Source of the DNA: Candidatus Neomarinimicrobium atlanticum
GTDB taxonomy: Bacteria > Fidelibacterota > Marinisomatia > Marinisomatales > Marinisomataceae
Assembly: GCA_000402815.1 (NCBI GenBank)
Contig: AQSA01000008.1
Location: 1,592-65,591, forward strand
Length of the DNA: 64,000 nucleotides
Direction of reading: 5' to 3'
Shown: piece after piece, positions 23,304 to 37,905 of the stretch
Layout: each line of letters opens with the position of its first letter
How positions within the stretch are numbered: the stretch's first letter is position 1
Program-made: the position numbers and the translations under genes
The notes under the pieces: model-generated
What the model was told of the DNA's origin: nothing
The model's input: only the letters and a program-made list of their open reading frames with translations
Database searches by the model: none

Positions 23304-23981
23304 ATCAATACCTTTTGTCATATAGAAGAAGGTTATTACCATCATTAGAATTATATACTTTTGAAAAGAGGCATGTAACGTTAAACCTATCAAAGACTCT
23401 CTAGCTGATGGACCATATTCAATAAAAGCAAGATATCCGACAACTGACAGGGCAGAAATCAGTATTAAAATACTATAGTCGATATAGTTTTCTCTGTAGA
23501 AAAAGTATGAGTATAAACCAAGTGTGATTCCTATAGCACAAGTCATGGATATTGCAAAAAAAAGATGAAGAGCATAAAGAGAGGGAACATTGACAGGTGT
23601 AATAACTACACCAAGAACACCAATGCAGCTATATATTGCTGTAATTCTTGCGATAAAAGTAAGTAATCCAAAGTTTGTTTTAAACTGTGTAATACCTAAA
23701 AAAAGAAATCTGGCTAGCGATCCAAGTAAAACCAAAGTACCGGTTGAGAAAATAACAAATGACGTTAAATTTCTTTCACCAGAAAGACTAATTGTTCTAC
23801 CTAAATCACTTATAAAATTTCTAAAAAAATTATAGTTATCTGTAGTTGAATCCAGAAGATGTCCACCCTGATAGAATGGCATAGCAGCAAAAATACAAAT
23901 GGTATAAAAAATAAGGTATTGCCTGGTTTTGCTTGTTATAGAACTCATGCGGCTAATATACACAAAGAAATAAAATTTCAA
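23283..23981 (-). CDS. Multi-pass membrane protein (possibly DUF998-like), paralog 1
   Basis: About 6 TM helices. Shares 'NFF.NFISDLGRT', 'VF/ITP.dVPSLY.LH.FFA' and 'Q K..ilmmV' blocks with the adjacent ORF. Its 3' end overlaps the leuS 3' end by 21 nt (convergent). Confidence 0.55.
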   Translation of the reverse strand: MKFYFFVYISRMSSITSKTRQYLIFYTICIFAAMPFYQGGHLLDSTTDNYNFFRNFISDLGRTISLSGERNLTSFVIFSTGTLVLLGSLARFLFLGITQFKTNFGLLTFIARITAIYSCIGVLGVVITPVNVPSLYALHLFFAISMTCAIGITLGLYSYFFYRENYIDYSILILISALSVVGYLAFIEYGPSARESLIGLTLHASFQKYIILMMVITFFYMTKGIDLLNDEV

Positions 23982-23992
23982 AAAAAATATAT

Positions 23993-24721
23993 CTAAGTTT
24001 CAAGTAAGTCTGTTCCCTTAGACATAACCCAAATAGTTCCAACGAGACTTAAAACTGCTACTTTTTGATAGGTTGCATGCATCGTTAAGGATTCAATTGA
24101 TTTCCAAGGCGCTGGACCAATCTCAAGAAAGACTATATATCCGGCAACAATTAAAGAACAAGTAAAAAGAGCATATGTAACGTTTTTTAAGCCTTTTGAG
24201 TAAAAAAGGTATGCATATATACCTAAAGTCAGCAAAGCGCAGTTAAACACTGAATTTGCGAAGAAAATATGAAGGGAATATAGAGATGGTACATCAGCCG
24301 GCGTAAAAACAACTCCAAGCAAACTAATAGATCCAAATGCAGCTGAAATTTTAGCTACAATACTTATTTTAGGTTTATCTTTTGAAAAATACTCTGCAGC
24401 ATTAAAAAGATAATAAAATGAAGCAATGATTTGAGTTAACATTCCCATTGAAAATAAAACAATAGATATGGTGTTATCAGCACCAGAATGGCTAGTTGTA
24501 CGACCTAAGTCACTTATAAAATTTGTAAAAAAGTTATAGTAGAGTGTTTGTTTTTCAATATAGTTTCCACCACCATAAAAGAATGCTGCTAAAGTGAGTA
24601 GTCCGATATAGGAGAGTAGTAGTCTCCTTGTATTTTTACCTAGTGTATTTCTCATATTCTCCCAATTATACATAACACATATTATACGTAAAACCTGTAA
24701 AACAGGTAAATAACAGGTCAT
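23993..24721 (-). CDS. Multi-pass membrane protein, paralog 2 (tandem duplicate of 23283..23981)
   Basis: Collinear similarity to paralog 1 ('YYNFFTNFISDLGRTTS', 'FTPADVPSLYSLHIFFAN'). The true start is probably an internal Met ('MYNWENMRNT' or 'MRNT'). Confidence 0.55.
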   Translation of the reverse strand: MTCYLPVLQVLRIICVMYNWENMRNTLGKNTRRLLLSYIGLLTLAAFFYGGGNYIEKQTLYYNFFTNFISDLGRTTSHSGADNTISIVLFSMGMLTQIIASFYYLFNAAEYFSKDKPKISIVAKISAAFGSISLLGVVFTPADVPSLYSLHIFFANSVFNCALLTLGIYAYLFYSKGLKNVTYALFTCSLIVAGYIVFLEIGPAPWKSIESLTMHATYQKVAVLSLVGTIWVMSKGTDLLET

Positions 24722-24837
24722 TTAAGTCTTTATCAAAATATTGATAAGTGTTATTAAAGTGTTTTATGATATTATCAAGCTATTAAACCCAAAATAATTT
24801 ATTTACAATTTTTTCAGTATCAACTAAATATTATTAG

Positions 24838-26769
24838 CTAATTATTTCTGATCCACATTGTATCTTTTTCACATTTCTCAATCATTTCTTTATCTGAAAA
24901 TGACACTTTATGAATTGTTCCAAGCTCTTTGTGTTCAAATTCAACAAACTCTTTATGTTCAAATTCAGCTTTAGAGAGATTTTGATCTGTATCTTTGCTT
25001 TCTTTTGAATGAGGTTTGATATCTTTGGCAAGTTCGGGCTTTTGATTTTTGTTTTTCCAATTTTCTATACATAAATCGATTATATATTCTTTATTTTTGA
25101 GATTTTTTAAGTAAAAAGCCCCTGTATTATTTTTTTCTAACTCACTAGCCTTGAATCCTTGAATATCTTTGTCCTGCTCCAAATTATTAATAAACTCTTT
25201 AAATTGATTTTTTAGTAGAGCATTAAAGTCTTTTTGAAACTTTCGCCAATTTTGAGTTTTAATAAATTCAGATTTAAAGCTTGCATAATGCTCTTTAGAA
25301 TCAAGTGATGATGATTTTTTAATAGCATGCTTTTCATTTTGAATGGCAATGATGTCGTCAATAATTAGATTTAAATCTTCTTCTAGGCCTATTTTTTTTA
25401 TTTTTTGGTTTTTTATATCTTTTTTAATTGATTCTATTTCTTTTTCGTAACCTTTTAATTCTGGATTTAATTGATCTTTCCTTTCTTTATACCTTCTTTT
25501 TAATTCAGCTGTGTTGGAAGTAAATCCTTTAATTTCTTTAATCATATCAAAGTGTTCTTTAATAAATTTAAATTGTGTGTTCCAGACAGATTCATTTACT
25601 GGGATACTGAAAATAAGAGATATGTAGTTATCTCCAAATTCAATATCGGAAATTTTATGTGAAGTAACTGAAACTATATAGTGGATTAAACTTTTGATGT
25701 AGAATTGTTTTTGAGTTCTACTGTAAAGATGCATCATTCCCAATAAGAAGTAAACGGTGATTGAATAATTTTTAGTAGAACTATCAAGAGATTCTTTTAG
25801 TTTTTCAGTTCCAATATCTGAAAGATTTATAAAGTCATTTACAATTTTAGACAACCTTCTTTTCGGATTGTAAATAACGCCCTCATTATGAACAAATCTC
25901 ATTTCATCTAATTCCAATATAAAATTGTCGACTTCTGATTGCAGTTGTTTTGTATCTACTTTTTTCTCTCTAAAACCCTTTATAAGAACACCTAAGTAAT
26001 GATTTTTACCTTGAAAAGATCTAGTTGAAAAATAATTCAATGAAATGCTAAGAACTTCATTTAATAATAAAAAATAATTTTGGTATTCTTTATCTATAGA
26101 TTTACTGATTTCAATAAAAAATTTACTATCTCTATTGCTCTGAAAAAGAACTAACTGTAATAGTATTGGAATAGAAAATTCAGGTTCTAAATCTTCAGAT
26201 GAAATTCGCCATTGATTTTCACGCCAAATTATTTTTGATAAGAAGTTTTCATACTCCTTTTTTTCATAAAAATAAGAAATGCCTAGCCCTCCTTTTAATG
26301 CATCTGTTTCTGCAACATTGATTATATTTCTCTTAAATTGAGAAAAATTACAAATCTCAAGATGCTCTATTGAGCTTTTTATTTCTATTGCAACAAAATT
26401 ATTTAATGTTTTAAAACTACTCCATCTTTCATTATGTTTTTCTTTTCCAAACCATCCAATTTTATCAACTTCAGATAAATCAATTCTTCCCTCATTTCTT
26501 AGTTTTAATATTGTTTTTTCTGAAAGTTGAAGACAAAAATCTCCTGGTAAAAATCTGACTTCATTTTTTTTTGAAAAATCTTCGAAGGATTGCAGGGAAT
26601 CCCAATCAATATAATCAGATATAATTTCTTGTGATGTCAGTATTTTTTGGTCAACACTAGCAAGTTGCTCTTTAGAAACTGTTCTAACGAGATTCCTTTC
26701 TAAATCAAATGATTTATTAGATTTATTAAAAAGGGAGGTCATCATCGTCATCATCGTCCTCATCATCAT
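24838..26769 (-). CDS. Uncharacterised 643-aa protein: N-terminal region with a possible PD-(D/E)XK-like 'D..EIK' motif, and a Lys/Glu-rich coiled-coil C-terminal third
   Basis: Long ORF whose 5' end overlaps the helicase 3' end by 17-44 nt (candidate starts 26742-26769). 'IDLSEVDKIG..(23 aa)..NNFVAIEIKSS' resembles a nuclease core. No Walker A motif. C-terminus 'ELKRRYKERKDQLNPELKGYEKEIESIKKDIKNQK'. No family recognised. Confidence 0.6.
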   Translation of the reverse strand: MMMRTMMTMMTSLFNKSNKSFDLERNLVRTVSKEQLASVDQKILTSQEIISDYIDWDSLQSFEDFSKKNEVRFLPGDFCLQLSEKTILKLRNEGRIDLSEVDKIGWFGKEKHNERWSSFKTLNNFVAIEIKSSIEHLEICNFSQFKRNIINVAETDALKGGLGISYFYEKKEYENFLSKIIWRENQWRISSEDLEPEFSIPILLQLVLFQSNRDSKFFIEISKSIDKEYQNYFLLLNEVLSISLNYFSTRSFQGKNHYLGVLIKGFREKKVDTKQLQSEVDNFILELDEMRFVHNEGVIYNPKRRLSKIVNDFINLSDIGTEKLKESLDSSTKNYSITVYFLLGMMHLYSRTQKQFYIKSLIHYIVSVTSHKISDIEFGDNYISLIFSIPVNESVWNTQFKFIKEHFDMIKEIKGFTSNTAELKRRYKERKDQLNPELKGYEKEIESIKKDIKNQKIKKIGLEEDLNLIIDDIIAIQNEKHAIKKSSSLDSKEHYASFKSEFIKTQNWRKFQKDFNALLKNQFKEFINNLEQDKDIQGFKASELEKNNTGAFYLKNLKNKEYIIDLCIENWKNKNQKPELAKDIKPHSKESKDTDQNLSKAEFEHKEFVEFEHKELGTIHKVSFSDKEMIEKCEKDTMWIRNN

Positions 26770-28264
26770 TATTTTCTGTATCTTCCCCTTCTGTTACTGG
26801 CCAAAAATTATCACGCTGAATTTTCTGAATCTTATTATTTATATCTTCTTCAGACTGTTCTAATGGATTTTCTCCTGCGTTAATAAAAAGGAAATTATCT
26901 GTATCTTTTTCAATTCCTTCTGGTAATCTGCAATATACACCAGAATCATTTCTGTCTACATAACTACATATTACTCTTTTCTTAGCTCTGGTAAATACCA
27001 TAAAAAATGTATTTTTAATAATAGCTTCTTTTTGTTCAGGGCTAAGCTCAAATCCTGTTCTCCACATATCATCTTCTTTATTGTCCTTAAACATAGATTT
27101 AAAATCTAATTTTTTCTCCTCTGTATCAGGAAAAAATAAATAATCAAATTGTAAGCCTTTTAAGCTATGAACAGTAGAAAAAAGAACAAGCTTAGGATTT
27201 TTAAAATCGAAATTATTTAGCATACTTTGTCCAGATTTTTTAGTTGCAAGCTCTCCCTTGATACCTCTTTTTAGTAGTTGATTTCTTATATGCTTTACAT
27301 TATCAAGGTGAGTGTGGGTTACTACAATTTGACTATCAGATCCATCATCTTTAGATTGAATAGCTTTAATTCTTTCCGCTATTGCATCATACTGATGATC
27401 TGTGCTTTCTGCATGAATAAAAAGGTTTGGTTGATTTCTAGCTCCTGAAATTGCGGTTTGATTTCTAGTTATGGGCTTTAAAAAATTATCTTTTTTTTCT
27501 CTTAGCTCAATAACGTCAAATTTATTCTCTGTTATAAAATATTGTGCAAGCACGGCAATCGTTACAGGGTTTCTAAAATTAACATCAAGAGAATGTCTAT
27601 CTAGCGTTGTATCATTATTGAGTTTTTTAAAACCTTCATGAGTTTCATGCATTCCATGCCCAAATATTTGCTGAGTGGCATCTCCTAACCATACTTGATT
27701 CTCAGATACTGCTTTAACAGTTATCAACATATTCTCTTCAAAATCCTGACATTCATCTATCAAAACTGTTTTACCGTATGGATTAACCCCAATTGATTTT
27801 GCAACTTTATTTGCAATCTCTTTTTTGGTCATGGTTGAATCAAGACCATATTCTTCCCATGCTTTAAGTCTATTATATCTTTTTGCAAAAGGATGATTAG
27901 ATAGCCAGCTTGAATCTTTTTCTATAGCGTCATAATCTCTTAAACATTCCCAAATACGCATTCTAGGTTCAGCTCTGGTATGAAAATATTGTACTGAATT
28001 ACTTAAATCTTCGTCAATATGATTAGTATTTTTAAATTGATCTTGAACAAATTTCTCTAACATTTTTGTAAAAACTATAAACTTAGCTGAAACTTGCTTT
28101 TTATCTAGCCTTATAGCTGCCATTGTGGCTAGCAGAGTTTTTCCTGCACCAGCACATCCAGTTAATAATATACTACGACCTGGTGACGAGGCAGTATCAA
28201 CAAATTTTTTTTGTTTATCAGTTAAATCGTTGTAAATAATGTTTGAAAATGCTTTGTCATTCAT
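26726..28264 (-). CDS. UvrD/Rep-like superfamily-1 DNA helicase with acidic poly-Asp C-terminal tail
   Basis: SF1 motifs readable in order: Q 'LTDKQKKFV', I 'LLTGCAGAGKTLL', II 'VLIDECQDF', III 'VWLGDATQQIFG', IV 'VNFRN', V 'STVHSLKGLQFDYLF', VI 'FMVFTRAKKRV'. Tail 'EGEDTENNDDEDDDDDDDLPF'. Confidence 0.85.
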   Translation of the reverse strand: MNDKAFSNIIYNDLTDKQKKFVDTASSPGRSILLTGCAGAGKTLLATMAAIRLDKKQVSAKFIVFTKMLEKFVQDQFKNTNHIDEDLSNSVQYFHTRAEPRMRIWECLRDYDAIEKDSSWLSNHPFAKRYNRLKAWEEYGLDSTMTKKEIANKVAKSIGVNPYGKTVLIDECQDFEENMLITVKAVSENQVWLGDATQQIFGHGMHETHEGFKKLNNDTTLDRHSLDVNFRNPVTIAVLAQYFITENKFDVIELREKKDNFLKPITRNQTAISGARNQPNLFIHAESTDHQYDAIAERIKAIQSKDDGSDSQIVVTHTHLDNVKHIRNQLLKRGIKGELATKKSGQSMLNNFDFKNPKLVLFSTVHSLKGLQFDYLFFPDTEEKKLDFKSMFKDNKEDDMWRTGFELSPEQKEAIIKNTFFMVFTRAKKRVICSYVDRNDSGVYCRLPEGIEKDTDNFLFINAGENPLEQSEEDINNKIQKIQRDNFWPVTEGEDTENNDDEDDDDDDDLPF

Positions 28265-28286
28265 AGTAGTGCCCTTTTTTTCATTG

Positions 28287-28315
28287 CTCTAAATAGTTCT
28301 ATATATAGAGTTACG
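28287..28315. promoter_or_regulatory. Operator-like imperfect palindrome CTCTAAATAG-tt-CTATATATAGAG(TTACG) in the divergent promoter region
   Basis: Read directly. The left arm read on the minus strand is CTATTTAGAG, 22-32 nt upstream of the helicase ATG. The right arm is the first copy of a 17-nt direct repeat (next feature). Confidence 0.35.
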
Positions 28316-28404
28316 ATAAGAAAAAGATATTGTTTCAATATAAATATAATTTAAGAATTTTAAAATTATAAAAAATTATCATTTAAATATTCTTCTACAT
28401 ATAA

Positions 28405-28421
28405 CTATATTTAGAGTTATG
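28405..28421 (+). promoter_or_regulatory. Second copy of the 17-nt motif CTATATTTAGAGTTATG, ending in the PLD-helicase start codon
   Basis: 15/17 identical to 28299-28315 (CTATATATAGAGTTACG). Both divergent operons therefore carry CTAT(AT)TTAGAG in sense orientation in their 5' leaders. Confidence 0.35.
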
Positions 28422-30497
28422 TCTTTAAGTAATATTAATTTTAAAAACTATTATAGCGGTTCTATGGGACATAATCTATTAGATTTACTATATACCCCCT
28501 GCCTTAAAAATTCTATTAAATATGATAGAGTCGCAGGATTCTTTAGCCCTAAAGTTCTTTCAGCTGCTGCTGAAGGAATGGCATCTTTTGTTCAAAATGG
28601 CGGAAAATATAGACTAGTTTTTAGTAAGCATTTGTTCAAAGAAGAAGATTATGATGCTATTAAGGATGGATATACAAAAGAGTTTGAAGACGACTTCCTG
28701 TCCTGTATTGATGAACTAAGACAATCAATGAAAGATCGTCCAAGAAAAATATTGGGATGGATGATTGCCAATGGACATTTAGAGATTAAAATAGCATTCA
28801 AAACACCTGACAATGCCCTTCTTCACTCTAAATGGGGTAATTTTGAGGATAATAGCGGAAATAGGCTAAACTATAGCGGTTCAATTAATGAAACCGAAAA
28901 TGCCTGGGTTAGACAAGTAGAATACTCTGATGTTTTTTGTAGTTGGAACGAAGGTGATAAATCTAGAGTTGATCAAAAGTTTGATTTATTTGAGACTATT
29001 TGGAATAATGAAGCCCCCAATATAAATGTTTTGGAGTTTACAGAGGTTCAAAAAAATCAATTTAGAATCGATAATGATATAGAAAATCAACAACAATTCA
29101 GTGAGCAATGCGAATTATATGACAGCGAAAGAGCTGAAGAGAAAGAAAATCCTCCTCTCTCCCCTTACAAATACCAACAAGAAGCAATAGATGCATGGAT
29201 AGATAATGATTATAAAGGTATTTTTGCTTTGGCGACAGGTTTGGGCAAAACATTCACCTCCCTGTTTTGCGTTAAAGAATATGCTAAGTTGCATGATAGT
29301 AAATATCTTTGTGTAATTGTATGCCCTTCTGAGTCATTAATCTATCAATGGAAGTCTGAGGTAGAAAAAATTTTAGATAAGACCCCATTGGTGTTAATGG
29401 ATGAAAGTAATTGGTCTGTTAAGCTAAAAGAAGAAATTGGTAGTTTAAATAATGATTATGAAGATAACCTTGTCTGCTTAGTAACATATCATACTTATTT
29501 TAAACCAAATTTTACATCAAGCATTGAGCAATGCGATAAAAATAAGATTATTATTTGTGATGAAGTGCATAATTCTGGAGCAAAAACTTGGAGAAAAGGC
29601 TTAATAGATGATTTTGATGCACGAATAGCTCTAAGTGCTACACCAAAAAGACATTTTGATGATGAAGGATCTAGTATAATTGAAGAATATTTTGATGGAG
29701 TAATAATAGAAAGAGATTTGGAATGGGGTATTAATAATGGCCCCAAAGAAGGTGAAACATTCCTTTCTCCTTACTACTATTCTGCCAAAGAAATAGATTT
29801 AACAGAAGAAGAGCTTGTTGACTATAGAAAAGTTACGCAAGCCATGGTAATTAATTATAATCCAAATGTATTGTTACAAGATGATAAATGGATGGGACTT
29901 GCTAATAAGCGAGCAAAAATTATTAAGAATGCTGAAAACAAGCTTGTTGAACTTAAACTGTTGCTAAAGAAGTTGGACTATAATCTTGATGGTGGTTTTA
30001 TTTTTGCTGGAGGTAGAAAGAATGACGAAGAAGGAAGTAGTTTTTTTGAAAAAGTACAATCCATCCTTGAAAAAAATAAAATGAAATATAGAAGATTTAT
30101 ATCAGACGACGCTAAAGAAGACCGTAAAACAGTTCTTAATCAGTTTAAAAGCAAAAGACTTGATGCTATACTGGCTATAGACTGTCTTGATGAAGGTATT
30201 GACATTCCTAATGCAGAAACAGCAATCCTGTTAAGCAGTTCAAGTAACTCAAAACAGTATATACAAAGAAGAGGAAGAGTTTTAAGAGTTCCTAAAGACA
30301 ATAAGAATAAAATAGCAAAGATTTATGATTTTATTTGCATCCCTCCTCCTGCCGAAAAAAAGTCTTTTTTTATGGAACAGTCATTAATAAAAAAACAACT
30401 AAACAGATTTAAAGAATTTTCAGATATATCGCTTAATAAAGATGAAAATCAAAAATTAATTGAAAAAATTGCAGATAATTGGGAAATTGAACTATGA
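28419..30497 (+). CDS. HKD (phospholipase-D-family) nuclease domain fused to an SF2 ResIII/DEAD-DEAH-type helicase
   Basis: N-terminal PLD block 'YDRVAGFFS'..'LLHSKWGNFEDNSGNRLNYSGSINET' (HxK..GSxN). Helicase motifs I 'ALATGLGKTF', Ia 'VIVCPSESLIYQW', II 'IICDEVHNSG', III 'ALSATPKR', VI 'QYIQRRGRVLR'. Confidence 0.85.
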   Translation: MSLSNINFKNYYSGSMGHNLLDLLYTPCLKNSIKYDRVAGFFSPKVLSAAAEGMASFVQNGGKYRLVFSKHLFKEEDYDAIKDGYTKEFEDDFLSCIDELRQSMKDRPRKILGWMIANGHLEIKIAFKTPDNALLHSKWGNFEDNSGNRLNYSGSINETENAWVRQVEYSDVFCSWNEGDKSRVDQKFDLFETIWNNEAPNINVLEFTEVQKNQFRIDNDIENQQQFSEQCELYDSERAEEKENPPLSPYKYQQEAIDAWIDNDYKGIFALATGLGKTFTSLFCVKEYAKLHDSKYLCVIVCPSESLIYQWKSEVEKILDKTPLVLMDESNWSVKLKEEIGSLNNDYEDNLVCLVTYHTYFKPNFTSSIEQCDKNKIIICDEVHNSGAKTWRKGLIDDFDARIALSATPKRHFDDEGSSIIEEYFDGVIIERDLEWGINNGPKEGETFLSPYYYSAKEIDLTEEELVDYRKVTQAMVINYNPNVLLQDDKWMGLANKRAKIIKNAENKLVELKLLLKKLDYNLDGGFIFAGGRKNDEEGSSFFEKVQSILEKNKMKYRRFISDDAKEDRKTVLNQFKSKRLDAILAIDCLDEGIDIPNAETAILLSSSSNSKQYIQRRGRVLRVPKDNKNKIAKIYDFICIPPPAEKKSFFMEQSLIKKQLNRFKEFSDISLNKDENQKLIEKIADNWEIEL

Positions 30498-30700
30498 AAA
30501 ATAAAGAAAATATAATAGATAAAAATCTTGAAATTATGCAGTCTCAAGCAGAAAAAGTGGATAGAATAGAGCATTTTAATTTTTTAAAACACCTAATAAA
30601 TCTTCAGTCAATGCATAAATATAACGTTATAACACAATTTGAAGCTGACTATATGAGTACATTAAGAGCGCAGCTTAAAAAGTATGAAGATAGAGGTTAA
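30494..30700 (+). CDS. 68-aa helical protein of unknown function, translationally coupled on both sides
   Basis: Its ATG overlaps the helicase TGA (ATGA at 30494-30497). Its TAA abuts the next ATG (TAAATG at 30698-30703). Confidence 0.5.
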   Translation: MKNKENIIDKNLEIMQSQAEKVDRIEHFNFLKHLINLQSMHKYNVITQFEADYMSTLRAQLKKYEDRG

Positions 30701-32788
30701 ATGAAGATTAATAAGATTATTCTAAAAAACTATAGGCAGTTCAGAGGCGTTCATACAATAGATTTTTCCCCTAAAAAAAATAAAAATATTAATATTATTC
30801 TTGGAAATAATGGTTTTGGTAAATCCAATACTTATTCAGCAATTAATTGGTGTTTATTTGGCGATGATCAACAAAAACATCAAAGATTAAATTTTAAAGT
30901 TAGAGATGATTTAAAAATTGGTAAAACAAAAAAGGTCTCTGTTATTATTGAGTTGAAAGGTAAAGATGAAAATAACAAAAATAGAATCACTACAATTGAA
31001 AGAATCGAATCATTTAAAAAAATTCAACATAAAAACATAGCAGCAGGTACACCTTCCAAAGCTCGTTCTAAAAAGAATGAGTTTTTTCTTAGCTATTACA
31101 CAACACAAGGCCTAAAAGAGCTAGAAGGAGTTCCAGCTGAAAATTATCTTAATAATAAAATTATTAGCACTGATATAAAAGACTTCTTCTTTTTGGATGG
31201 TCAACAAATTCAAAAATTTGTTTTAAAAAATAGCACAACTGATATTTCAGGTCATCTTGATATTTTAACAAGTATAACAGATATGCAAGGCGTTTTAAAA
31301 AATCTTACAACCTTACAAAAAAAATTAGAAAAAAAAGCACCTTCACAATCTAATTCAGAACTAGAAGAAGAAATTCATGAAAAAAGAAATCAGGTAAATA
31401 ATCTCACAGATACCATGAATCATTCTAAAGAGAATGTTCAGAGATTAAACGAACAAAAACAACGCATAGAATCTAAAATTTTAGATTTGAAAAAAAGGGT
31501 TTCTACTCACTACGAAACTAAACTAATCATTAATAAAAGAAATGATCTTGACAGAAGAATTCTTCAATGCCGAGAAAATATTTCCATGACTCAAGAAGCA
31601 GACTATCTCAATATTATTGAACATTTTGCTGGAACAGTTGCTAATAAACATTTAAAAGAATATAAAAATCTAATTGATAAGAAAGTAGATGACGAAGATT
31701 TACCAAAACCTACGATTGAAGGCGCAGATGACATTATTGATTTTATGATTGATGAAAACAAGCTTGTTATTCAGGATAAGATTTTTGCTGATATTAAATG
31801 GAAGAAAAGTATCGATAAGGATAAGTTTAAAAAATCTATAGAAGATTATAACGAATTTGCTATGAGCCAAAGAGACTCTAAGATGGCAAAAATAGCTCTT
31901 GAAGTAAATGATTTTGTAGTAGCAGCACTTGCTGATACAAAACCTAAAGAAGTGCTTCAAGAATCGAAAGACGCGTATCAAAGAATTAAAGACTTTAATA
32001 CAAGTTTAGATAAAATGCTTAAAGAGCATGTTGATTTAACAAGCCAGATTGGTGATGGCGGAGCAGAAAATATTAAAAATGATGCGGCTGAACTAAGAGG
32101 TAAAGAAAATTTACTATCTGATTTAAATATAGAATATGGTGCTTATCTTAGTAAGTATCAAAGTTCAGAAAAGCAAATTAAGGAAATTGAAAAAGAAATT
32201 AATAAGAAAGAGTCCAAGTTGGGCAAAACTTCTAATATTCATCATGAAATTAACTTTATTAAGCGATCTATAGAGATTTTAAAACCTTCTATTGCAGAAA
32301 CAAGAGCAACGATTCTTTCATCTACAAACAAAGTATTTGCAGATTTGTTTGAACAAAATATATTAAAGAAAAACACCTATGATGTTAAAATAAAAGATGA
32401 CTATTCTTTAGATATAATGCACAGGATAAGAATTGAAGATATGCTTCCAAGAGGAAAAGAACCTCTAATTTCAACAGGTGAGCAATTTTTACTAGGATAC
32501 TCTTATATGCAATCCATGCAAGAAAGCGTCCAACTTCGCTTCCCTATTATCATTGATACTCCTTTAAGTGCAATTGATATGGATTTAAGAGACGGAATTA
32601 TGAATCGTTTTGTTGATCTTGCAAATCGATTTGACTATTTGCAATTTACATTCTTATTTACCAATAGCGAATTAACGCCTGACATAGAAGCTATACTAAA
32701 GCCTAAGATAGGTAAATTTATTAAAATACATGCTGTCGATTCAGGAGATAAAAGTACAGAAGATTCTTACTATGAGGTCCTGTCATGA
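30701..32788 (+). CDS. DndD-like SMC/ABC-type ATPase (Walker A head, long coiled coil, signature plus Walker B tail)
   Basis: 'MKINKIILKNYRQFRGVHTIDF..ILGNNGFGKSNTYSAINWCLFG' (Walker A). About 450 aa of Lys/Glu/Asn-rich coiled coil. C-terminal 'ISTGEQFLLGYSYMQSM..FPIIIDTPLSAIDMD' resembles the DndD 'LSAGE..IIDTPLGRLD' tail. Confidence 0.8.
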   Translation: MKINKIILKNYRQFRGVHTIDFSPKKNKNINIILGNNGFGKSNTYSAINWCLFGDDQQKHQRLNFKVRDDLKIGKTKKVSVIIELKGKDENNKNRITTIERIESFKKIQHKNIAAGTPSKARSKKNEFFLSYYTTQGLKELEGVPAENYLNNKIISTDIKDFFFLDGQQIQKFVLKNSTTDISGHLDILTSITDMQGVLKNLTTLQKKLEKKAPSQSNSELEEEIHEKRNQVNNLTDTMNHSKENVQRLNEQKQRIESKILDLKKRVSTHYETKLIINKRNDLDRRILQCRENISMTQEADYLNIIEHFAGTVANKHLKEYKNLIDKKVDDEDLPKPTIEGADDIIDFMIDENKLVIQDKIFADIKWKKSIDKDKFKKSIEDYNEFAMSQRDSKMAKIALEVNDFVVAALADTKPKEVLQESKDAYQRIKDFNTSLDKMLKEHVDLTSQIGDGGAENIKNDAAELRGKENLLSDLNIEYGAYLSKYQSSEKQIKEIEKEINKKESKLGKTSNIHHEINFIKRSIEILKPSIAETRATILSSTNKVFADLFEQNILKKNTYDVKIKDDYSLDIMHRIRIEDMLPRGKEPLISTGEQFLLGYSYMQSMQESVQLRFPIIIDTPLSAIDMDLRDGIMNRFVDLANRFDYLQFTFLFTNSELTPDIEAILKPKIGKFIKIHAVDSGDKSTEDSYYEVLS

Positions 32789-33240
32789 GTAAATCTAAAT
32801 ATATAATTTTAAAAGAAAGATATTACACAGATGAAAAAAAGACTGAGCCCACATGGCTAGAAGTTAAGAATCATCCTATATGGAAAAAGATTACAGGAAA
32901 AGAAATAGATAGATTGACAATTTCAATGATGGCAACAGTGATTGGGTATCATTACAAGTTACGTAAAACAGGAACTTTTGGGTTGAGTATTGGAGGATGG
33001 CTTCAAAATCCACATACCGGTAAAAGAAACGAAAAACAAGAAAAAGCAATTGCTATTATGGTTGCAATTGCTGTTAAAGAAGAGAGTATTGAAATTCTTA
33101 ATGAGGATGCTAATGATATTCAAAATATTTCACATGAGTATGGAAATGGCGGTGTTTACAAGTTACTTGAAATAATTAATCAAGAAAGTGAAAAAGTTAT
33201 ATTTGATACACTACAAAGTATTATGAGAAAGTCTATTTAA
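32785..33240 (+). CDS. 151-aa protein of unknown function, last gene of the four-gene operon
   Basis: ATGA start/stop overlap with the ATPase (32785-32788). Predicted mostly helical. It occupies the position that dndE has after dndD, but I cannot demonstrate homology. Its 3' end overlaps the convergent C5-MTase gene by 30 nt. Confidence 0.5.
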   Translation: MSKSKYIILKERYYTDEKKTEPTWLEVKNHPIWKKITGKEIDRLTISMMATVIGYHYKLRKTGTFGLSIGGWLQNPHTGKRNEKQEKAIAIMVAIAVKEESIEILNEDANDIQNISHEYGNGGVYKLLEIINQESEKVIFDTLQSIMRKSI

Positions 33241-34491
33241 AAGCGTTTTTCCTATATTTTCTACACAACCTATTACCAGTGCATTTCCCATTAAAAAAGC
33301 TCGTTTACTATCAAGTAAATTATAAACAGTACCATCCTTATTTTTACCAAATTCTGTAAAATTATCTGGAAACATATTTAATCTCTCTAGTTCTAGCGGT
33401 ATTAGTCGTCTAGACTTACCTGAGGATGTCTTAATAAGATGTTTGCTTCTAGATGCAGACTTACCTCCTTCGGCAGTTAAAATCGTGCGGGAGGGCTTAT
33501 TTAGAGCGTCATACAAGTTCATTTTTCCTATTCTTATATCATACTTAAATCCTGATTTAGACGTTCTTGCAAATGTTCCACCAAATTTATGGTGTTCCCA
33601 TTTTTTAATATCTTCTTTGCTTACATAATATTCATCTGGAATATTTTTATCTTTTTCAAGAATATCATTTAAAACCTTATACTTGCCTTTATAATTATTC
33701 TTGATATCATAGGTTAAATACTCCCTATTATGATTAATTCCATAATTGAAGAATTTTTTTGGAGAGCTATATTTAAAAGCGCTAAGTGTACCCTTTGGCG
33801 CAGGATTAAATGCTTTGAAAACTTCATCTAATGATTTATTTCCCAGACTATACATTAGATCTAGTGAATCGTTGCGATTTTTCATGAAAGGAAAGGCCTC
33901 TTCTAATATTAATTTATTCCCTTTTTTGAATTTTTTATAGATTGGAGTATTATTCTTAAAGCAAAAAAAGAAAACTCTCTTTCTTCGCTGAGGAAAACCA
34001 TATAGAGAAGAATCAACTACCATCCATTCCACCGTGTATCCTCTGTCATTTAATGAGGCAAGCATATAGGCAAAATCTCTGCCTTTTTCCAATGCAGGAG
34101 ATTGTAATAATCGATTTACATTTTCAAATAAACAATAAGAAGGTTTTTTCTTGTCAATAACTTCTAAGATTTTATACCATAAATTTCCCTTTTTTCCTTC
34201 TAAGCCCTTCGATGTAGCTAGCGTTTGAGCAACTGAAAAATCTTGGCATGGGAATCCTGCTGTTAAAAGTTCAAAATCTGGAATGTCGTGATTTTCTTTA
34301 ATAACTGTATCAATATCAGTATTTGATAGCGTTTTATCGCCAAAATGATAGCGATATACGTCAGCTGCGGCTTGATTTCTAGGAGTAGATGGTTCATATT
34401 GATTAGTCCATACACATTCAAACCTACTATCTGCTTTTTCAAGCCCAACTCTAAATCCACCTACCCCGCCAAACAATTCAACAAAACGCAT
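33211..34491 (-). CDS. DNA (cytosine-5)-methyltransferase
   Basis: Motif I 'VELFGGVGGF', IV 'GFPCQDFS', VI 'ENV', VIII 'QRRKRVFF', IX 'RRLIPLELERLNMFPDNFT', X 'GNALV'. A variable target-recognition region lies between VIII and IX. Confidence 0.9.
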   Translation of the reverse strand: MRFVELFGGVGGFRVGLEKADSRFECVWTNQYEPSTPRNQAAADVYRYHFGDKTLSNTDIDTVIKENHDIPDFELLTAGFPCQDFSVAQTLATSKGLEGKKGNLWYKILEVIDKKKPSYCLFENVNRLLQSPALEKGRDFAYMLASLNDRGYTVEWMVVDSSLYGFPQRRKRVFFFCFKNNTPIYKKFKKGNKLILEEAFPFMKNRNDSLDLMYSLGNKSLDEVFKAFNPAPKGTLSAFKYSSPKKFFNYGINHNREYLTYDIKNNYKGKYKVLNDILEKDKNIPDEYYVSKEDIKKWEHHKFGGTFARTSKSGFKYDIRIGKMNLYDALNKPSRTILTAEGGKSASRSKHLIKTSSGKSRRLIPLELERLNMFPDNFTEFGKNKDGTVYNLLDSKRAFLMGNALVIGCVENIGKTLLNRLSHNTL

Positions 34492-35009
34492 TAAAACTCT
34501 TTATTTGACCAAGCCATAAATTGATCGAGGTTTAAAATTTTTAAATCTTTAGAAAAATTATCCTTTACGTACAGTTTATTTTTCCAAGCTTCTTTTAGCC
34601 AAGTTACAGCAGGAATAATAGCATCACCACCATGTACAAAAACACACATAGGTTCTGGAAAATTATTTTCAATAAAATTCATATAAAAGTATGGAATTTT
34701 CTCAGATACGCTACCAGATCCTTGTTGCCACTTACACTCTAATCGAAAATATAAATCATCTTTAAAAATTCGATATTCTGAAAAACATCTGGGATTATTG
34801 TAAATACTCTTGTAGTAATTTCTTCCTTTGACAATCACTCCACCTGGATATAGTTCGTTAATAAGGCTTGGCCAATCATTATGGCGCATTATTTTATCCA
34901 TCTCTTTTGAATGAATAACAGTTAAACCCTTATCTTCAAGTTGGGTAATAATATGCCTTTCAAATATTTGACCATTAATATTTGCTTGTGTTCCACCTTG
35001 TAATACCAT
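34491..35009 (-). CDS. Small (172-aa) PD-(D/E)XK-fold nuclease, probable restriction endonuclease partner of the C5 MTase
   Basis: 'NGQIFERHI' (helix Glu) .. 'FKDDLYFRLECKWQQGSGS' (D..ExK core). Its TAA overlaps the MTase ATG by 1 nt (TAATG). Not Vsr-like (no 'CFWH' block). Confidence 0.55.
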   Translation of the reverse strand: MVLQGGTQANINGQIFERHIITQLEDKGLTVIHSKEMDKIMRHNDWPSLINELYPGGVIVKGRNYYKSIYNNPRCFSEYRIFKDDLYFRLECKWQQGSGSVSEKIPYFYMNFIENNFPEPMCVFVHGGDAIIPAVTWLKEAWKNKLYVKDNFSKDLKILNLDQFMAWSNKEF

Positions 35010-35016
35010 ATTTCTC

Positions 35017-35841
35017 CTAATAGTTTGTAATAATTAGCTCAGAGACCTTCTTTCTAGAACTGCTTTTTGATCCTACCGAACGACTTACTAATATCTGCTT
35101 CATATTATATCCATTGTATATTTCTTTTGTTTTAGGCGTTCCTGAATTTGACATCATAAATTTTGCTCCCATATCCGTTAATTTATCGCAAAATCCTTTA
35201 AGATCATAGTGCATTTGTTCCGTGAAGTCATCCTTAGCATATTTAGTAAAAGATGCACTATTGACTGGTAGGTATGGAGGATCAAGATATATAAAACTTT
35301 CTGAATCTAATTTAGGTAAGATATCTAGATAGGAGTGACATCCAAACTTAATTTTTTTGAATATATTTGAACAATTTCTTAGATTATCTTTATCACATAT
35401 AGTCACTTTTCCTGAGCTGGTCCTCCCCTTTGGAACATTAAACTCTCCCTTACTATTTTCTCGATAAAGTCCATTGAAACAAGTTTTATTTAAATAAATA
35501 AAAAGTGCTGCTATTTCATACCTGCTATCAAGCCCTCTATTAAATTCCGTTCTTTTTTCGTAATAGTAGTCTTCATTTATATGATGATTCTGTTCATGTA
35601 TTTTTAAATGATTGATAATTGATTCAACATCAGCCTTAATACATTTGTAGGTAAGAATCAATTTAGGGTTAATATCAGATAAATAGGCGTTATGAGGCTG
35701 TAAATTAAAAAACATCCCACCTCCACCAATCATTGGCTCAAAATAATCGCGATTACTGAAATCTGATGGTAGATAAGCTTTTAAAGTATTTGCAAGGGTA
35801 TATTTACCTCCAGCCCATTTAATGAATGGTTTACTAGTCAT
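35017..35841 (-). CDS. Dam-family (MethyltransfD12, alpha-class) N6-adenine DNA methyltransferase
   Basis: 'FIKWAGGKY', 'FEPMIGGGGMF' (AdoMet motif I), 'YLDPPY' (motif IV). Its start overlaps the DUF2130 stop by 8 nt. Confidence 0.9.
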   Translation of the reverse strand: MTSKPFIKWAGGKYTLANTLKAYLPSDFSNRDYFEPMIGGGGMFFNLQPHNAYLSDINPKLILTYKCIKADVESIINHLKIHEQNHHINEDYYYEKRTEFNRGLDSRYEIAALFIYLNKTCFNGLYRENSKGEFNVPKGRTSSGKVTICDKDNLRNCSNIFKKIKFGCHSYLDILPKLDSESFIYLDPPYLPVNSASFTKYAKDDFTEQMHYDLKGFCDKLTDMGAKFMMSNSGTPKTKEIYNGYNMKQILVSRSVGSKSSSRKKVSELIITNY

Positions 35842-36910
35842 CTAAGTCGTCGTAAAATGATGAGTCAATATTTTCTGGTAAACCAACATCGCTCTCAGGA
35901 GAAATATACTTGATTTCTATTAATGAACTTTCTAAAGTATTTTTAATCACCTCAAATGACTTTCGCTCCTCTTTTATGAATCGTTTAAAGACAACTTCTT
36001 TTTTATCGATTCTACTTTTTTGTTCATCAATTTCGTCCCAAATATTTGACATTTGGTTGATAAATTTTTCACTCGTTATATAATCAAATACTTCTTCAGG
36101 AGCACTAGTTTTTCTCGCTTGAGCAACGTCAATCATTGAACTTTTTTCTATAATACCTTGCCTAGTTATGGCAAGTGCGCTTATATAATATCTAGGTTCC
36201 ATTCTACAAATCAGGATATTTTTCTGCTTAAAGAAAGGTAAAGAACCGTCTACATTTTTTGGATATGATCTTGTAATAATTACCCCTGTATCTATACTAC
36301 TATCTTTCATATCTGCTTTCAATTTAGGTATCCATCCATTTGAGAAACTTTTAGTATTTTTTACCTCAATAGCAATTTTAGCAGTCGCTTTCCCTTTTCT
36401 TTCATTGATTTTTATAATCCAATCTGCTCCACTTTTACCCCTCTTTACTTCTTCAATAACATCATCCGGGAAAGCTTGTTCTAGTTCTCTTTGTACAATA
36501 TTCTCTGCAGCTTCTCCGGAAACTTGAACTTGGGATCGACTTCCGCTTGCACCCACATCCTCATTAAGATTTGCAACTTTTGATGTCAATTGATTATTTA
36601 ACTCCACTAGAGAAGCTTGCTTTTGTCTATTGAGTAACTCATTTGCTTTTACTGCTTCCTGAATAGCTTTTTGTTGATCTTGTTCTTGGGCTTTGACTGC
36701 TGCGTCAACAGCTTTTTGTTGTTCTTGTTCTTTGGCTTTGACTGCTGCGTCAATAGCTTTTTGTTGATCTTGTTCTTTGGCTTTGACTGCTGCGTCAATA
36801 GCTTTTTGTTGATCTTGCTGTTGGGCTTTGACACCCTCTTGAATTTCTTGTTTTATTGAATCTTGAATATCAACGTTTTCACCACAATGAGGACATTTAA
36901 TTTTGTTCAT
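35834..36910 (-). CDS. DUF2130-like protein: N-terminal zinc ribbon, repetitive coiled coil, C-terminal restriction-endonuclease-like domain
   Basis: 'MNKIKCPHCGENVDIQ'. Four 15-aa units 'QDQQKAIDAAVKAKE'. C-terminal 'GEAAENIVQRELEQAFPDD..GADWIIKI..KIAIEVKNTKSFSNGWIPKLKADM' (D..EVK core). Overall RmuC-like architecture. Confidence 0.7.
   Translation of the reverse strand: MNKIKCPHCGENVDIQDSIKQEIQEGVKAQQQDQQKAIDAAVKAKEQDQQKAIDAAVKAKEQEQQKAVDAAVKAQEQDQQKAIQEAVKANELLNRQKQASLVELNNQLTSKVANLNEDVGASGSRSQVQVSGEAAENIVQRELEQAFPDDVIEEVKRGKSGADWIIKINERKGKATAKIAIEVKNTKSFSNGWIPKLKADMKDSSIDTGVIITRSYPKNVDGSLPFFKQKNILICRMEPRYYISALAITRQGIIEKSSMIDVAQARKTSAPEEVFDYITSEKFINQMSNIWDEIDEQKSRIDKKEVVFKRFIKEERKSFEVIKNTLESSLIEIKYISPESDVGLPENIDSSFYDDLDD
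36665..36844. repeat. Four tandem in-frame copies of a 45-nt unit inside the DUF2130 gene
   Basis: Units at 36665-36709, 36710-36754, 36755-36799 and 36800-36844 ('agctttttgttgatcttgttctttggctttgactgctgcgtcaat'). There are only a few substitutions between the first three units, a degenerate half-unit upstream, and no spacers. Confidence 0.9.
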
Positions 36911-36937
36911 TTAACTTCTCCAGTTAATATTAATGAT

Positions 36938-37132
36938 TTAATCGTCATAATCTCTATTCACTCCAGCAATATCATCTGCTATATCTCCAAAAAAGAACCA
37001 AGAGACAAGATAGCATACCCAAAACGCACCGATAGTAAGCCAATATCCTTCCATAAACACAAGTTCTTGTAAATTTGGTGTCATATATAGAATGAAAGTT
37101 AAAACGACTAACAGTATTGTAATACAGCCCAT
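36938..37132 (-). CDS. Possible 64-aa two-TM membrane protein with acidic tail
   Basis: 'CITILLVVLTFILYM' and 'WLTIGAFWVCYLVSWFFF' helices; tail 'DIADDIAGVNRDYDD'. Directly upstream of the DUF2130 gene on the same strand. No homology recognised. Confidence 0.35.
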   Translation of the reverse strand: MGCITILLVVLTFILYMTPNLQELVFMEGYWLTIGAFWVCYLVSWFFFGDIADDIAGVNRDYDD

Positions 37133-37175
37133 GCTAAAATATATTAAATATTAATGTATGTATCCCTACTTAAGA

Positions 37176-37445
37176 TTATGCGCATATAACTTGAGCAATA
37201 TTAAAGTCTAAAAACTTATCGAAATCAACAGCTATAATTTTAAATTCCATGGTATACAGTGTTTTGCAATACTTGCATCCAACACGATATAAGATTACTT
37301 CATCCCCCTCTTTATTTAAATCTAGTAATGAAAAGTATACACCAGTTTCTTTAAGTGGCTTTTCACACACTAGGCATGAATGTCCTGTTGTAAGTTTTTT
37401 TGCTTTTTTAAATTCATCAGAATTTGGATCAATACATTGTATCAT
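37176..37445 (-). CDS. 89-aa putative zinc-ribbon protein
   Basis: Two CxxC pairs ('CLVCEKPL' .. 'CKYCKTL'); RBS 'aaaaggagac' upstream of the ATG. Confidence 0.4.
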   Translation of the reverse strand: MIQCIDPNSDEFKKAKKLTTGHSCLVCEKPLKETGVYFSLLDLNKEGDEVILYRVGCKYCKTLYTMEFKIIAVDFDKFLDFNIAQVICA

Positions 37446-37566
37446 ATAGGTAAGTCTCCTTTTTGGTTAGTTATGTTGTGCGAGGGATAAAAAGGATTAT
37501 TTCAAATCGTAATAATATCTCTACTATATTAACGGCATTCTAAAATTTAATTACAAGTTTTATATT

Positions 37567-37905
37567 TTATTTTTTAGGTTTTTCGACAGTTAATTCAAAA
37601 AATTTAGCTGCTCCACAAGTACGTGCTCCTTTTACAACTACATCAATCCTGCAAATTCTAAGCACCAGTTGATTAATGTTATATCGTTGCGTTAAATAAA
37701 TCAATTCATTTCTCTTTGCTAATGATTGATTAGAAGTTTTAAAAGGAAATGGTGTAACTTGTCCACCTGCACTTTGTCCATCCATCCAGTAATCTATTAG
37801 AATCTTTGCACTTCCTTTTTCTTTGATCTCTTTATTAATCCTTGATCGATAGGATGAATCAATTAATCCTGCAACTAATTTATAATTACTTATTACCATT
37901 TTCAT
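37567..37905 (-). CDS. 112-aa hypothetical protein
   Basis: Strong RBS ('aaaggagag' 5-6 nt before the ATG); no family recognised. Confidence 0.45.
   Translation of the reverse strand: MKMVISNYKLVAGLIDSSYRSRINKEIKEKGSAKILIDYWMDGQSAGGQVTPFPFKTSNQSLAKRNELIYLTQRYNINQLVLRICRIDVVVKGARTCGAAKFFELTVEKPKK

Follow-up and report, generated by a model that had tools for sequence, protein, structure and literature searches.

A probable composite operon pairing a Dam-family methyltransferase with a PF20472 nuclease in a defence island of Candidatus Neomarinimicrobium atlanticum

The restriction enzymes R.DpnIII, LlaKR2I and Sau3AI have MutH-related sequences; LlaKR2I and Sau3AI cleave GATC as MutH does, DpnIII has been shown by experiment to cleave the same site, and the C5 methylase M.DpnIII acts on GATC and also blocks BglII and BamHI (PMC4471560). 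In PbeABCD systems, PbeA is an HKD nuclease fused to a superfamily 2 (SF2) helicase, PbeB is a rapidly evolving small protein, PbeC is an ABC ATPase of the CxC clade and PbeD is the cognate of DndE, and comparative genomics indicates that cytosine methylases are often coupled to such systems in place of phosphorothioation (PMC10853773; MTaX1 is named once in that paper, without description there). We take a methylase-coupled Pbe variant to be already described, so far as a proposal from comparative genomics only. DUF2130 proteins form PD-(D/E)XK family 109, of unknown function (Steczkiewicz et al. 2012, PMC3424549). Here we analyse a stretch of 64,000 nucleotides (nt) from Candidatus Neomarinimicrobium atlanticum (Marinimicrobia/SAR406, phylum Fidelibacterota; contig AQSA01000008.1, taxid 1007123, to which the nuclease matches exactly), referred to as the window, and within it a minus-strand operon (33211–36910) encoding a DUF2130 protein, a Dam-family N6-adenine methyltransferase (MTase), a small PD-(D/E)XK nuclease and a C5-cytosine (m5C) MTase, which converges on a PbeABCD-like operon.

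We think it probable that the four-gene operon is a composite, in which a Dam–nuclease cassette, an m5C MTase serving the Pbe-like system and a DUF2130 add-on stand together in a defence island of ~12 kb. In the direction of transcription the genes are DUF2130 (35834–36910; 358 amino acids (aa), PF09903 with E=4.8e-29), the Dam-family MTase (35017–35841; 274 aa, D12 class, PF02086 with E=2.3e-57 and TIGR00571 with E=4.6e-85), the nuclease (34491–35009; 172 aa, PF20472 (PDDEXK_11) with E=5.8e-24) and the m5C MTase (33211–34491; 426 aa, PF00145 with E=1.8e-58, and TIGR00675). In the sequence itself, 8 nt with the letters ATGACTAG belong both to the end of the DUF2130 gene and to the beginning of the Dam gene, 7 nt (GAGAAAT) separate the TAG of Dam from the ATG of the nuclease, and the TAA of the nuclease runs into the ATG of the m5C MTase as TAATG; an AGGAG-like motif lies across the Dam stop, ahead of the nuclease gene. 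The open reading frames (ORFs), domains and junctions are all as given in the original prediction, an earlier reading of the same DNA. A terminator scan found no terminator-like sites inside the four genes, the sole such site being placed upstream of the operon (37961–37942), and a promoter scan was without enrichment (29 found versus 29.7 expected from shuffles).

The pairing of the nuclease with the Dam-family MTase is best seen in unrelated genomes. Scanning a single genome of each species for a sequence pattern gave 348 confirmed stretches with relatives of the nuclease, distributed across many phyla and including Campylobacter concisus, cyanobacteria, Chloroflexota, Brocadia, Bacteroidota, Spirochaetota and the archaeon Methanocella. 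We counted neighbours in the best-scoring 80 of these 348 loci, a subset which is not random, by calling ORFs and then searching them with the proteins of the window (the ORF caller takes the longest ORF, and inter-gene distances in this survey are approximate). An adenine or amino MTase adjoins the PF20472 nuclease in 77 of the 80 loci: a Dam-family MTase lies immediately upstream on the same strand in 58, an N6_N4 (PF01555) MTase occupies that position in 15, Dam and nuclease are fused in a single ORF in two (L033 and L038; loci are referred to by L numbers and individual homologs by P numbers), and the MTase adjoins on the other strand in two more (L067 and L087). No MTase was detected beside the nuclease in the last three, one of which is at a contig edge, and neither an m5C MTase nor a DUF2130 gene was found near the nuclease in any of the 80. 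The nuclease family is thus paired with amino-MTases across its breadth and, with an amino-MTase beside it in 77 loci and an m5C MTase in none, the nuclease is best regarded as the partner of Dam. We predict from these gene neighbourhoods that Dam and the PF20472 nuclease make up a horizontally mobile Type II restriction-modification cassette.

The original prediction had arranged the genes differently, with the nuclease and the m5C MTase as an ordinary Type II pair and Dam left with no obvious cognate endonuclease unless this was DUF2130 or the phospholipase D (PLD)-helicase of the convergent operon. The TAATG translational coupling speaks for the nuclease–m5C pair and the 8-nt overlap for a partnership between DUF2130 and Dam, but in the 80 loci the neighbour of the nuclease is an amino-MTase in 77 and an m5C MTase in none, and we give this arrangement hardly any credence. 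Both statements from which it was built have had to be given up, as Dam does have a family-wide partner, which is the PF20472 nuclease.

The two fusions (L033:5065–6492, 475 aa, and L038:5182–6489, 435 aa) come from Chloroflexota metagenome-assembled genomes, one of them Ardenticatenaceae. We also note that for about one-fifth of the PF20472 nucleases the partner is an N6_N4 MTase (L036:5067–6008 and 14 similar loci). All ten of the N6_N4 partners that were scanned against Pfam match PF01555, and the L036 protein, the sole such partner searched against the PDB, is closest to CcrM (E=2.7e-58). CcrM is a GANTC enzyme. The nuclease family therefore probably covers more than one specificity, and these partners hint at a family that spans GATC and GANTC. 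A tblastn search with the nuclease gave no phage matches and a single plasmid match, to Alicyclobacillus sp. TC p1, where a Dam and PD-(D/E)XK nuclease pair lies beside an Abi gene.

The nuclease itself belongs to a family of 234 clusters at 50% identity in an exhaustive HMMER search, nearly all of them stand-alone proteins of 150–200 aa (a word-index homolog search had returned just nine close relatives). The homologs have the common motif E…E-C-K-W-Q-Q-x-x-G-S-V-D-E-K-x-P-Y, in which the ECKWQQxxGSVDEK stretch is conserved across the family as are the E..E-x-K, Q and E-K columns, and in the window's protein the proposed active site consists of E17, E78 and E91-C-K93, plus Q95 and E103-K104. 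An AlphaFold2 (AF2) model with a predicted local distance difference test (pLDDT) score of 95.9 shows an alpha-beta-beta-beta-alpha core. A Foldseek comparison of this model with the PDB found nothing at E<0.001, and the top weak matches include the PD-(D/E)XK nucleases RecU, Can2, the R.BspD6I small subunit, SfsA and EcoO109I. The conserved columns, the model and these weak fold matches indicate that the catalytic motif of the 172-aa protein is intact and that it folds as a nuclease. PDB sequence searches with the nuclease and with DUF2130 returned chance-level matches only, neither NCBIfam nor PADLOC has a model that covers the nuclease or DUF2130, or two further proteins of 151 aa and 643 aa (described below), and a literature search on PF20472 or PDDEXK_11 found nothing.

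A small PD-(D/E)XK protein placed between Dam and an m5C MTase might also be a repair nickase, acting either like MutH together with Dam or like Vsr at the T:G mismatches derived from m5C, and the size, position and MutH- or Vsr-like fold of the 172-aa protein would suit such a role. In Pfam, however, the protein matches PF20472 only, with no match to MutH (PF02976) or Vsr (PF03852), nor to the DpnII/MboI family (PF04556). The family is sporadic and scattered, with a plasmid copy beside an Abi gene, an archaeal copy and MTase fusions, and in the 80 other loci it never adjoins m5C MTases and is also paired with CcrM-like N6_N4 MTases. These grounds (the missing Pfam matches, the mobile and scattered family and the N6_N4 pairing) led us to discard a Vsr- or MutH-like identity for the nuclease, and we regard a repair function as very unlikely. 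PF20472 instead appears to be a widespread and uncharacterised family of very small predicted Dam-cognate restriction enzymes, newly identified here.

The likely target of the Dam–nuclease pair is suggested by the MTase. Among proteins in the PDB the window's Dam is closest to DpnM (M.DpnII 1, 2dpm; E=5.2e-51) and then to E. coli Dam (2g1p; E=6.6e-42), and alignment with these two structures shows that the FNGLYRxNxxGEFNVPxGR loop and the N-terminal lysine of FIKWAGGK are conserved, which we take to be the residues contacting GATC in Dam–DNA crystal structures. A strict E. coli Dam-like loop pattern was found in at least 41 of 59 partner Dams from other loci, many of which read like the E. coli Dam sequence YNGLCRYN..G.FNVPFG. 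Of the 16 four-base palindromes, GATC is the rarest in the window relative to expectation (159 observed against 252 expected from the trinucleotide composition of the window, z=-7.2), and a depletion of this kind is expected in DNA long exposed to a GATC restriction enzyme. Dam is probably a G(m6A)TC enzyme, with Dam and the nuclease forming a pair for GATC; we infer both this specificity and which methylation would block which nuclease.

The m5C MTase has to be considered together with the plus-strand operon that converges on it. The original prediction had noted a PLD-helicase and a DndD-like ATPase there, and both hold up in PADLOC. The PbeA homolog (28419–30497; HKD (PLD) nuclease plus SF2 helicase) matches PbeA with E=3.8e-194 and has ResIII, Helicase_C and weak PLDc_2 matches; its score of 363 bits against TIGR04095 (dnd_restrict_1) is under the cut-off of 600, and it is 34% identical over its full length to the helicase encoded at L102. 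The PbeC homolog (30701–32788), a DndD-like coiled-coil ABC ATPase, matches PbeC with E=6e-47 and DndD with E=3e-29, with AAA_23 and TIGR03185 matches below cut-off, and may belong to a DndD-like subclade. The gap between these two genes is filled exactly by a previously unnoticed ORF of 68 aa (30494–30700), which overlaps the PbeA stop as ATGA and ends 1 nt before the PbeC start, and which is a candidate PbeB; L102 has a 57-aa ORF at the same position. The last gene of the convergent operon (32785–33240) encodes a PbeD- or DndE-like candidate of 151 aa, which has no match in the copy of Pfam searched and is 32% identical to a 140-aa protein of L098 carrying PF27807 (DNA_S_mod_dnd_assoc_4, from precomputed annotation) and 64% identical to a 149-aa protein of L001. 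We found dnd modification genes neither within the island nor among the scanned neighbours on its flanks, which are housekeeping genes (leuS, msrA and an epimerase included).

With a Pbe-like set that lacks dnd modification genes and an m5C MTase alongside, this MTase is best explained as the Pbe modification arm, and its most likely role is that of the modification component of the convergent PbeABCD-like system. The same association is seen with genes on one strand at L102/L103, where a 51% identical m5C MTase is followed by a BglII-family nuclease, a PbeA-like helicase, the 57-aa ORF, an AAA_23 ATPase and a PF27807 protein. In L098, where the m5C MTase is 72% identical, the Dam–nuclease–m5C order is kept and the convergent layout is retained even though the PbeD-like and PbeC-like proteins are just 32% and 23% identical to those of the window. 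The m5C MTase is found without a PF20472 nuclease at L099, L102 and L152, and so is independent of it. As a fallback, the original prediction had offered one or both MTases as the self-protection arm of the convergent operon, and this survives for the m5C MTase only, on the co-directional genes of L102/L103 and the coupling reported elsewhere (PMC10853773). As with the adenine mark, the Pbe reading of the m5C mark is one that we infer.

We note that the m5C MTase gene and the PbeD-like gene share 30 nt (33211–33240) at their 3' ends, with no room for terminators, and convergent transcription could couple the expression of the modification and restriction modules.

The m5C MTase has thousands of relatives, and two of its homologs, P0085 from Malaciobacter marinus and P0040 (48% and 47% full-length identity), are encoded beside MutH-family (PF02976) proteins of 461–463 aa that are 51% identical to each other. 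In the alignment with P0085 the target-recognition region (TRD) can be aligned throughout, with 37% identity compared with 57% for the catalytic core, and no PF02976 match was found among the nine island proteins scanned with Pfam. These affinities make it likely that the m5C MTase belongs to a Sau3AI/DpnIII-like clade, with GAT(m5C) or a GATC-containing site as the predicted target.

Several observations weigh against parts of the composite reading. The CxC zinc-hook motif that defines the literature clade was not found in the PbeC sequence, which has two cysteines only. At 37% TRD identity to a Sau3AI-linked homolog, the site of the m5C MTase could differ from GATC. At L099–L101, which occupy the same chromosomal spot as the window operon (flanks 80–94% identical), genes for 163-aa, 761-aa and 128-aa proteins are followed by a 58% identical m5C MTase and then by GmrSD, and at L152 a 51% identical MTase is followed by a 181-aa gene and a GmrSD_N protein, with no Pbe genes on the DNA recovered in either case; the m5C MTase may simply be the resident methylase at the island boundary. 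For both MTases and for the nuclease, the recognition site is a prediction. Finally, in all close relatives the nuclease and m5C MTase genes are joined by TAATG, which would also fit a three-gene methyltransferase–restriction enzyme–methyltransferase (M-R-M) unit.

In such an M-R-M unit Dam, nuclease and m5C MTase would act as one system, both MTases would guard a single GATC site and the Pbe genes would merely be neighbours. The tight spacing (7 nt and TAATG) is kept in L001–L006, where the nuclease is 67% identical, the three genes remain coupled in L098, and GATC is a plausible target of both methylases. The absence of an m5C MTase from all 80 of the other PF20472 loci counts against this, as does the occurrence of the MTase apart from the nuclease at the three loci named above, in one of which (L102) it shares a strand with Pbe genes. 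We consider an M-R-M unit unlikely, and continue with the reading in which the m5C MTase serves the Pbe-like system.

The remaining gene encodes a DUF2130 protein with an N-terminal CPxCG zinc ribbon, a coiled coil, a PD-(D/E)XK core and a C-terminal helical region. The core residues are E133, D163 and E182-V-K184, and G132-E133, E136, D163 and E182-x-K184 are invariant in 30 homologs. The AF2 model (pLDDT 81.8) has as its best PDB folds the nuclease domains of MspJI, a SPARDA nuclease, Hjc and EcoRV. The earlier description of DUF2130 as nuclease-like is borne out by these invariant catalytic columns and nuclease-domain fold matches, and we predict that it is a nuclease. Most homologs have a longer coiled coil than this protein, in which a 15-aa repeat makes up part of that region. 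This repeat is encoded by a 45-nt tandem repeat (36645–36832; 4.2 copies, 91% matches), and close relatives differ in length (P0130 has 377 aa and P0131 343 aa), which suggests copy-number variation of the repeat.

A linkage between DUF2130 and MTases was not seen more widely. There was no Dam near DUF2130 in 33 viral-contig loci and 15 metagenome loci (within the flank in both sets) or in two further distinct contexts, and homologs at 24–27% identity lie amid housekeeping genes (in the two distinct contexts with annotated neighbours). Dam follows DUF2130 only in close relatives, down to 42% identity at L010, where Dam is 68% identical to that of the window. Outside the close relatives the only MTase–DUF2130 adjacency found was at L149 (L149:42–2748, a marine metagenome contig), where a 38% identical m5C MTase is followed 158 nt on by a distant DUF2130-like ORF of 420 aa. 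This could be taken in favour of DUF2130 as a methylase partner, as the 8-nt overlap could for Dam, and is set against the lack of an adjacent Dam in the 33, 15 and two contexts and against L098, which keeps the Dam–nuclease–m5C trio without DUF2130. The survey of other genomes that had been called for thus shows no general linkage of DUF2130 with MTases, and the suggestion that DUF2130 is the cognate nuclease of Dam falls with it.

In L098 the place of DUF2130 between a conserved small membrane protein and Dam is taken by a 125-aa ORF which is not DUF2130, overlaps the Dam start and has a sub-threshold GIY-YIG match (E=0.008). As the slot is filled by another gene here, DUF2130 is not a required component, and it appears to be a lineage-specific and exchangeable addition to the operon, occupying a variable slot upstream of Dam. 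In the window the small hydrophobic or membrane protein of 64 aa is encoded immediately beyond this slot (36938–37132, minus strand, upstream of DUF2130). The sister islands keep it at this position, and on visual comparison it looks like the 66-aa protein of L098 and the 65-aa protein of L010, which are 89% identical to each other; the gene marks the conserved edge of the variable region.

The defence island as a whole is variable and is set between housekeeping genes. In related marine genomes, L098 and L099–L101 occupy the same chromosomal spot as 33211–37905 of the window with the cargo swapped: a flanking 112-aa protein is 80–85% identical in L098 and L099, and an 89-aa protein is 94% identical in L099 and 30% in L098. 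Cargo is exchanged in a second lineage too, with the BglII-like nuclease and Pbe genes of L102 in place of the 181-aa gene and GmrSD_N of L152. From these comparisons the m5C MTase appears to be the constant element of a hypervariable defence hotspot. Divergent from PbeA is a pair of minus-strand genes (24838–28264), for a UvrD/GajB-like helicase (26726–28264; PADLOC GajB, E=6.9e-15) and a 643-aa protein without a family match (24838–26769), which overlap by 44 nt and may together be another defence module of two genes. Two tandem paralogous multi-pass membrane proteins of 232 and 242 aa (23283–24721, minus strand) are encoded at the island's left edge, and the one scanned (23993–24721) has no Pfam match. 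The GC skew changes sign in the region of ~23000–34000, with a cumulative maximum near 32–34 kb, and genes are oriented all-plus over 1–23 kb and all-minus over 33–64 kb; the defence island is at a terminus-like skew inflection.

Taken together, the composite reading would work as follows. Dam would methylate the adenine of GATC, and the small PD-(D/E)XK enzyme, presumably as a homodimer, would cut unmethylated GATC in incoming DNA. The m5C MTase would methylate cytosine in GATC or in a site containing GATC, mainly as a 'self' mark for the PbeABCD-like machine of HKD nuclease-helicase, small protein, DndD-like ABC ATPase and DndE-like protein, in which PbeA would be the restriction effector. 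Co-translation of the m5C MTase with the nuclease would occur only because the Dam cassette sits immediately upstream. DUF2130, by sequence a catalytically intact nuclease, would be co-transcribed here without being a required or general methylase partner.

Both marks may fall on the same tetranucleotide. A more speculative extension, which we offer tentatively and think somewhat improbable, is that GATC receives two marks from one transcript and that each is read by a different restriction machine, with G(m6A)TC guarding against the PF20472 enzyme and GAT(m5C) acting as the self-mark for Pbe in place of phosphorothioation. DUF2130, or the possible GIY-YIG-like gene of the sister island, would then occupy an exchangeable slot for a third nuclease coupled to Dam.

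Each part of the operon belongs to a known kind, and the new points are modest. If the nuclease proves to be a GATC cutter, an enzyme of 165 aa for which a standard dam+ E. coli strain suffices as cloning host would make a useful tool and a minimal model of site recognition, within a family whose partners are of the Dam type (probably GATC) and the CcrM type (possibly GANTC). The locus is also a compact natural example of a methylase-coupled PbeABCD system, suited to asking whether Pbe reads base methylation. For DUF2130, the linkage to a methylase is not a functional clue after all.

Compared with the DpnII/MboI GATC systems, in which a Dam-class MTase (DpnM or M.MboIA) is joined by a second MTase, the window has a Dam closest to DpnM and linked to restriction-modification, together with a second MTase, and we take the M-R-M gene order to resemble that of MboI. 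The nuclease differs, being a much smaller PF20472 protein of 172 aa and not a member of the DpnII/MboI family (PF04556), and the second MTase is a C5-cytosine enzyme here whereas theirs is a beta-class N6-adenine enzyme. The likeness to Sau3AI, LlaKR2I and DpnIII is in the m5C MTase, which is 47–48% identical to MTases beside MutH-family proteins, but no MutH-family endonuclease was found among the nine island proteins scanned, and with a TRD of 37% identity the shared specificity is a prediction. Set beside RmuC, other coiled-coil PD-(D/E)XK proteins and DUF2130/COG4487, the window's protein is a genuine PF09903 member with that family's invariant acidic and lysine residues and a long coiled coil before the core, and it differs in its location in a defence island and in its shorter, repeat-built coiled coil. 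The convergent operon resembles the PbeABCD/CxC ABC-ATPase systems (Xiong et al. 2019, PMC6459918; PMC10853773) in its PbeA and PbeC homologs and candidate PbeB and PbeD, and the methylase-coupled variant in having a C5 methylase nearby without dndCDEA genes. It differs from them in a PbeC without CxC, and in a methylase that is convergent and shares its transcript with an unrelated, predicted Type II cassette and DUF2130.

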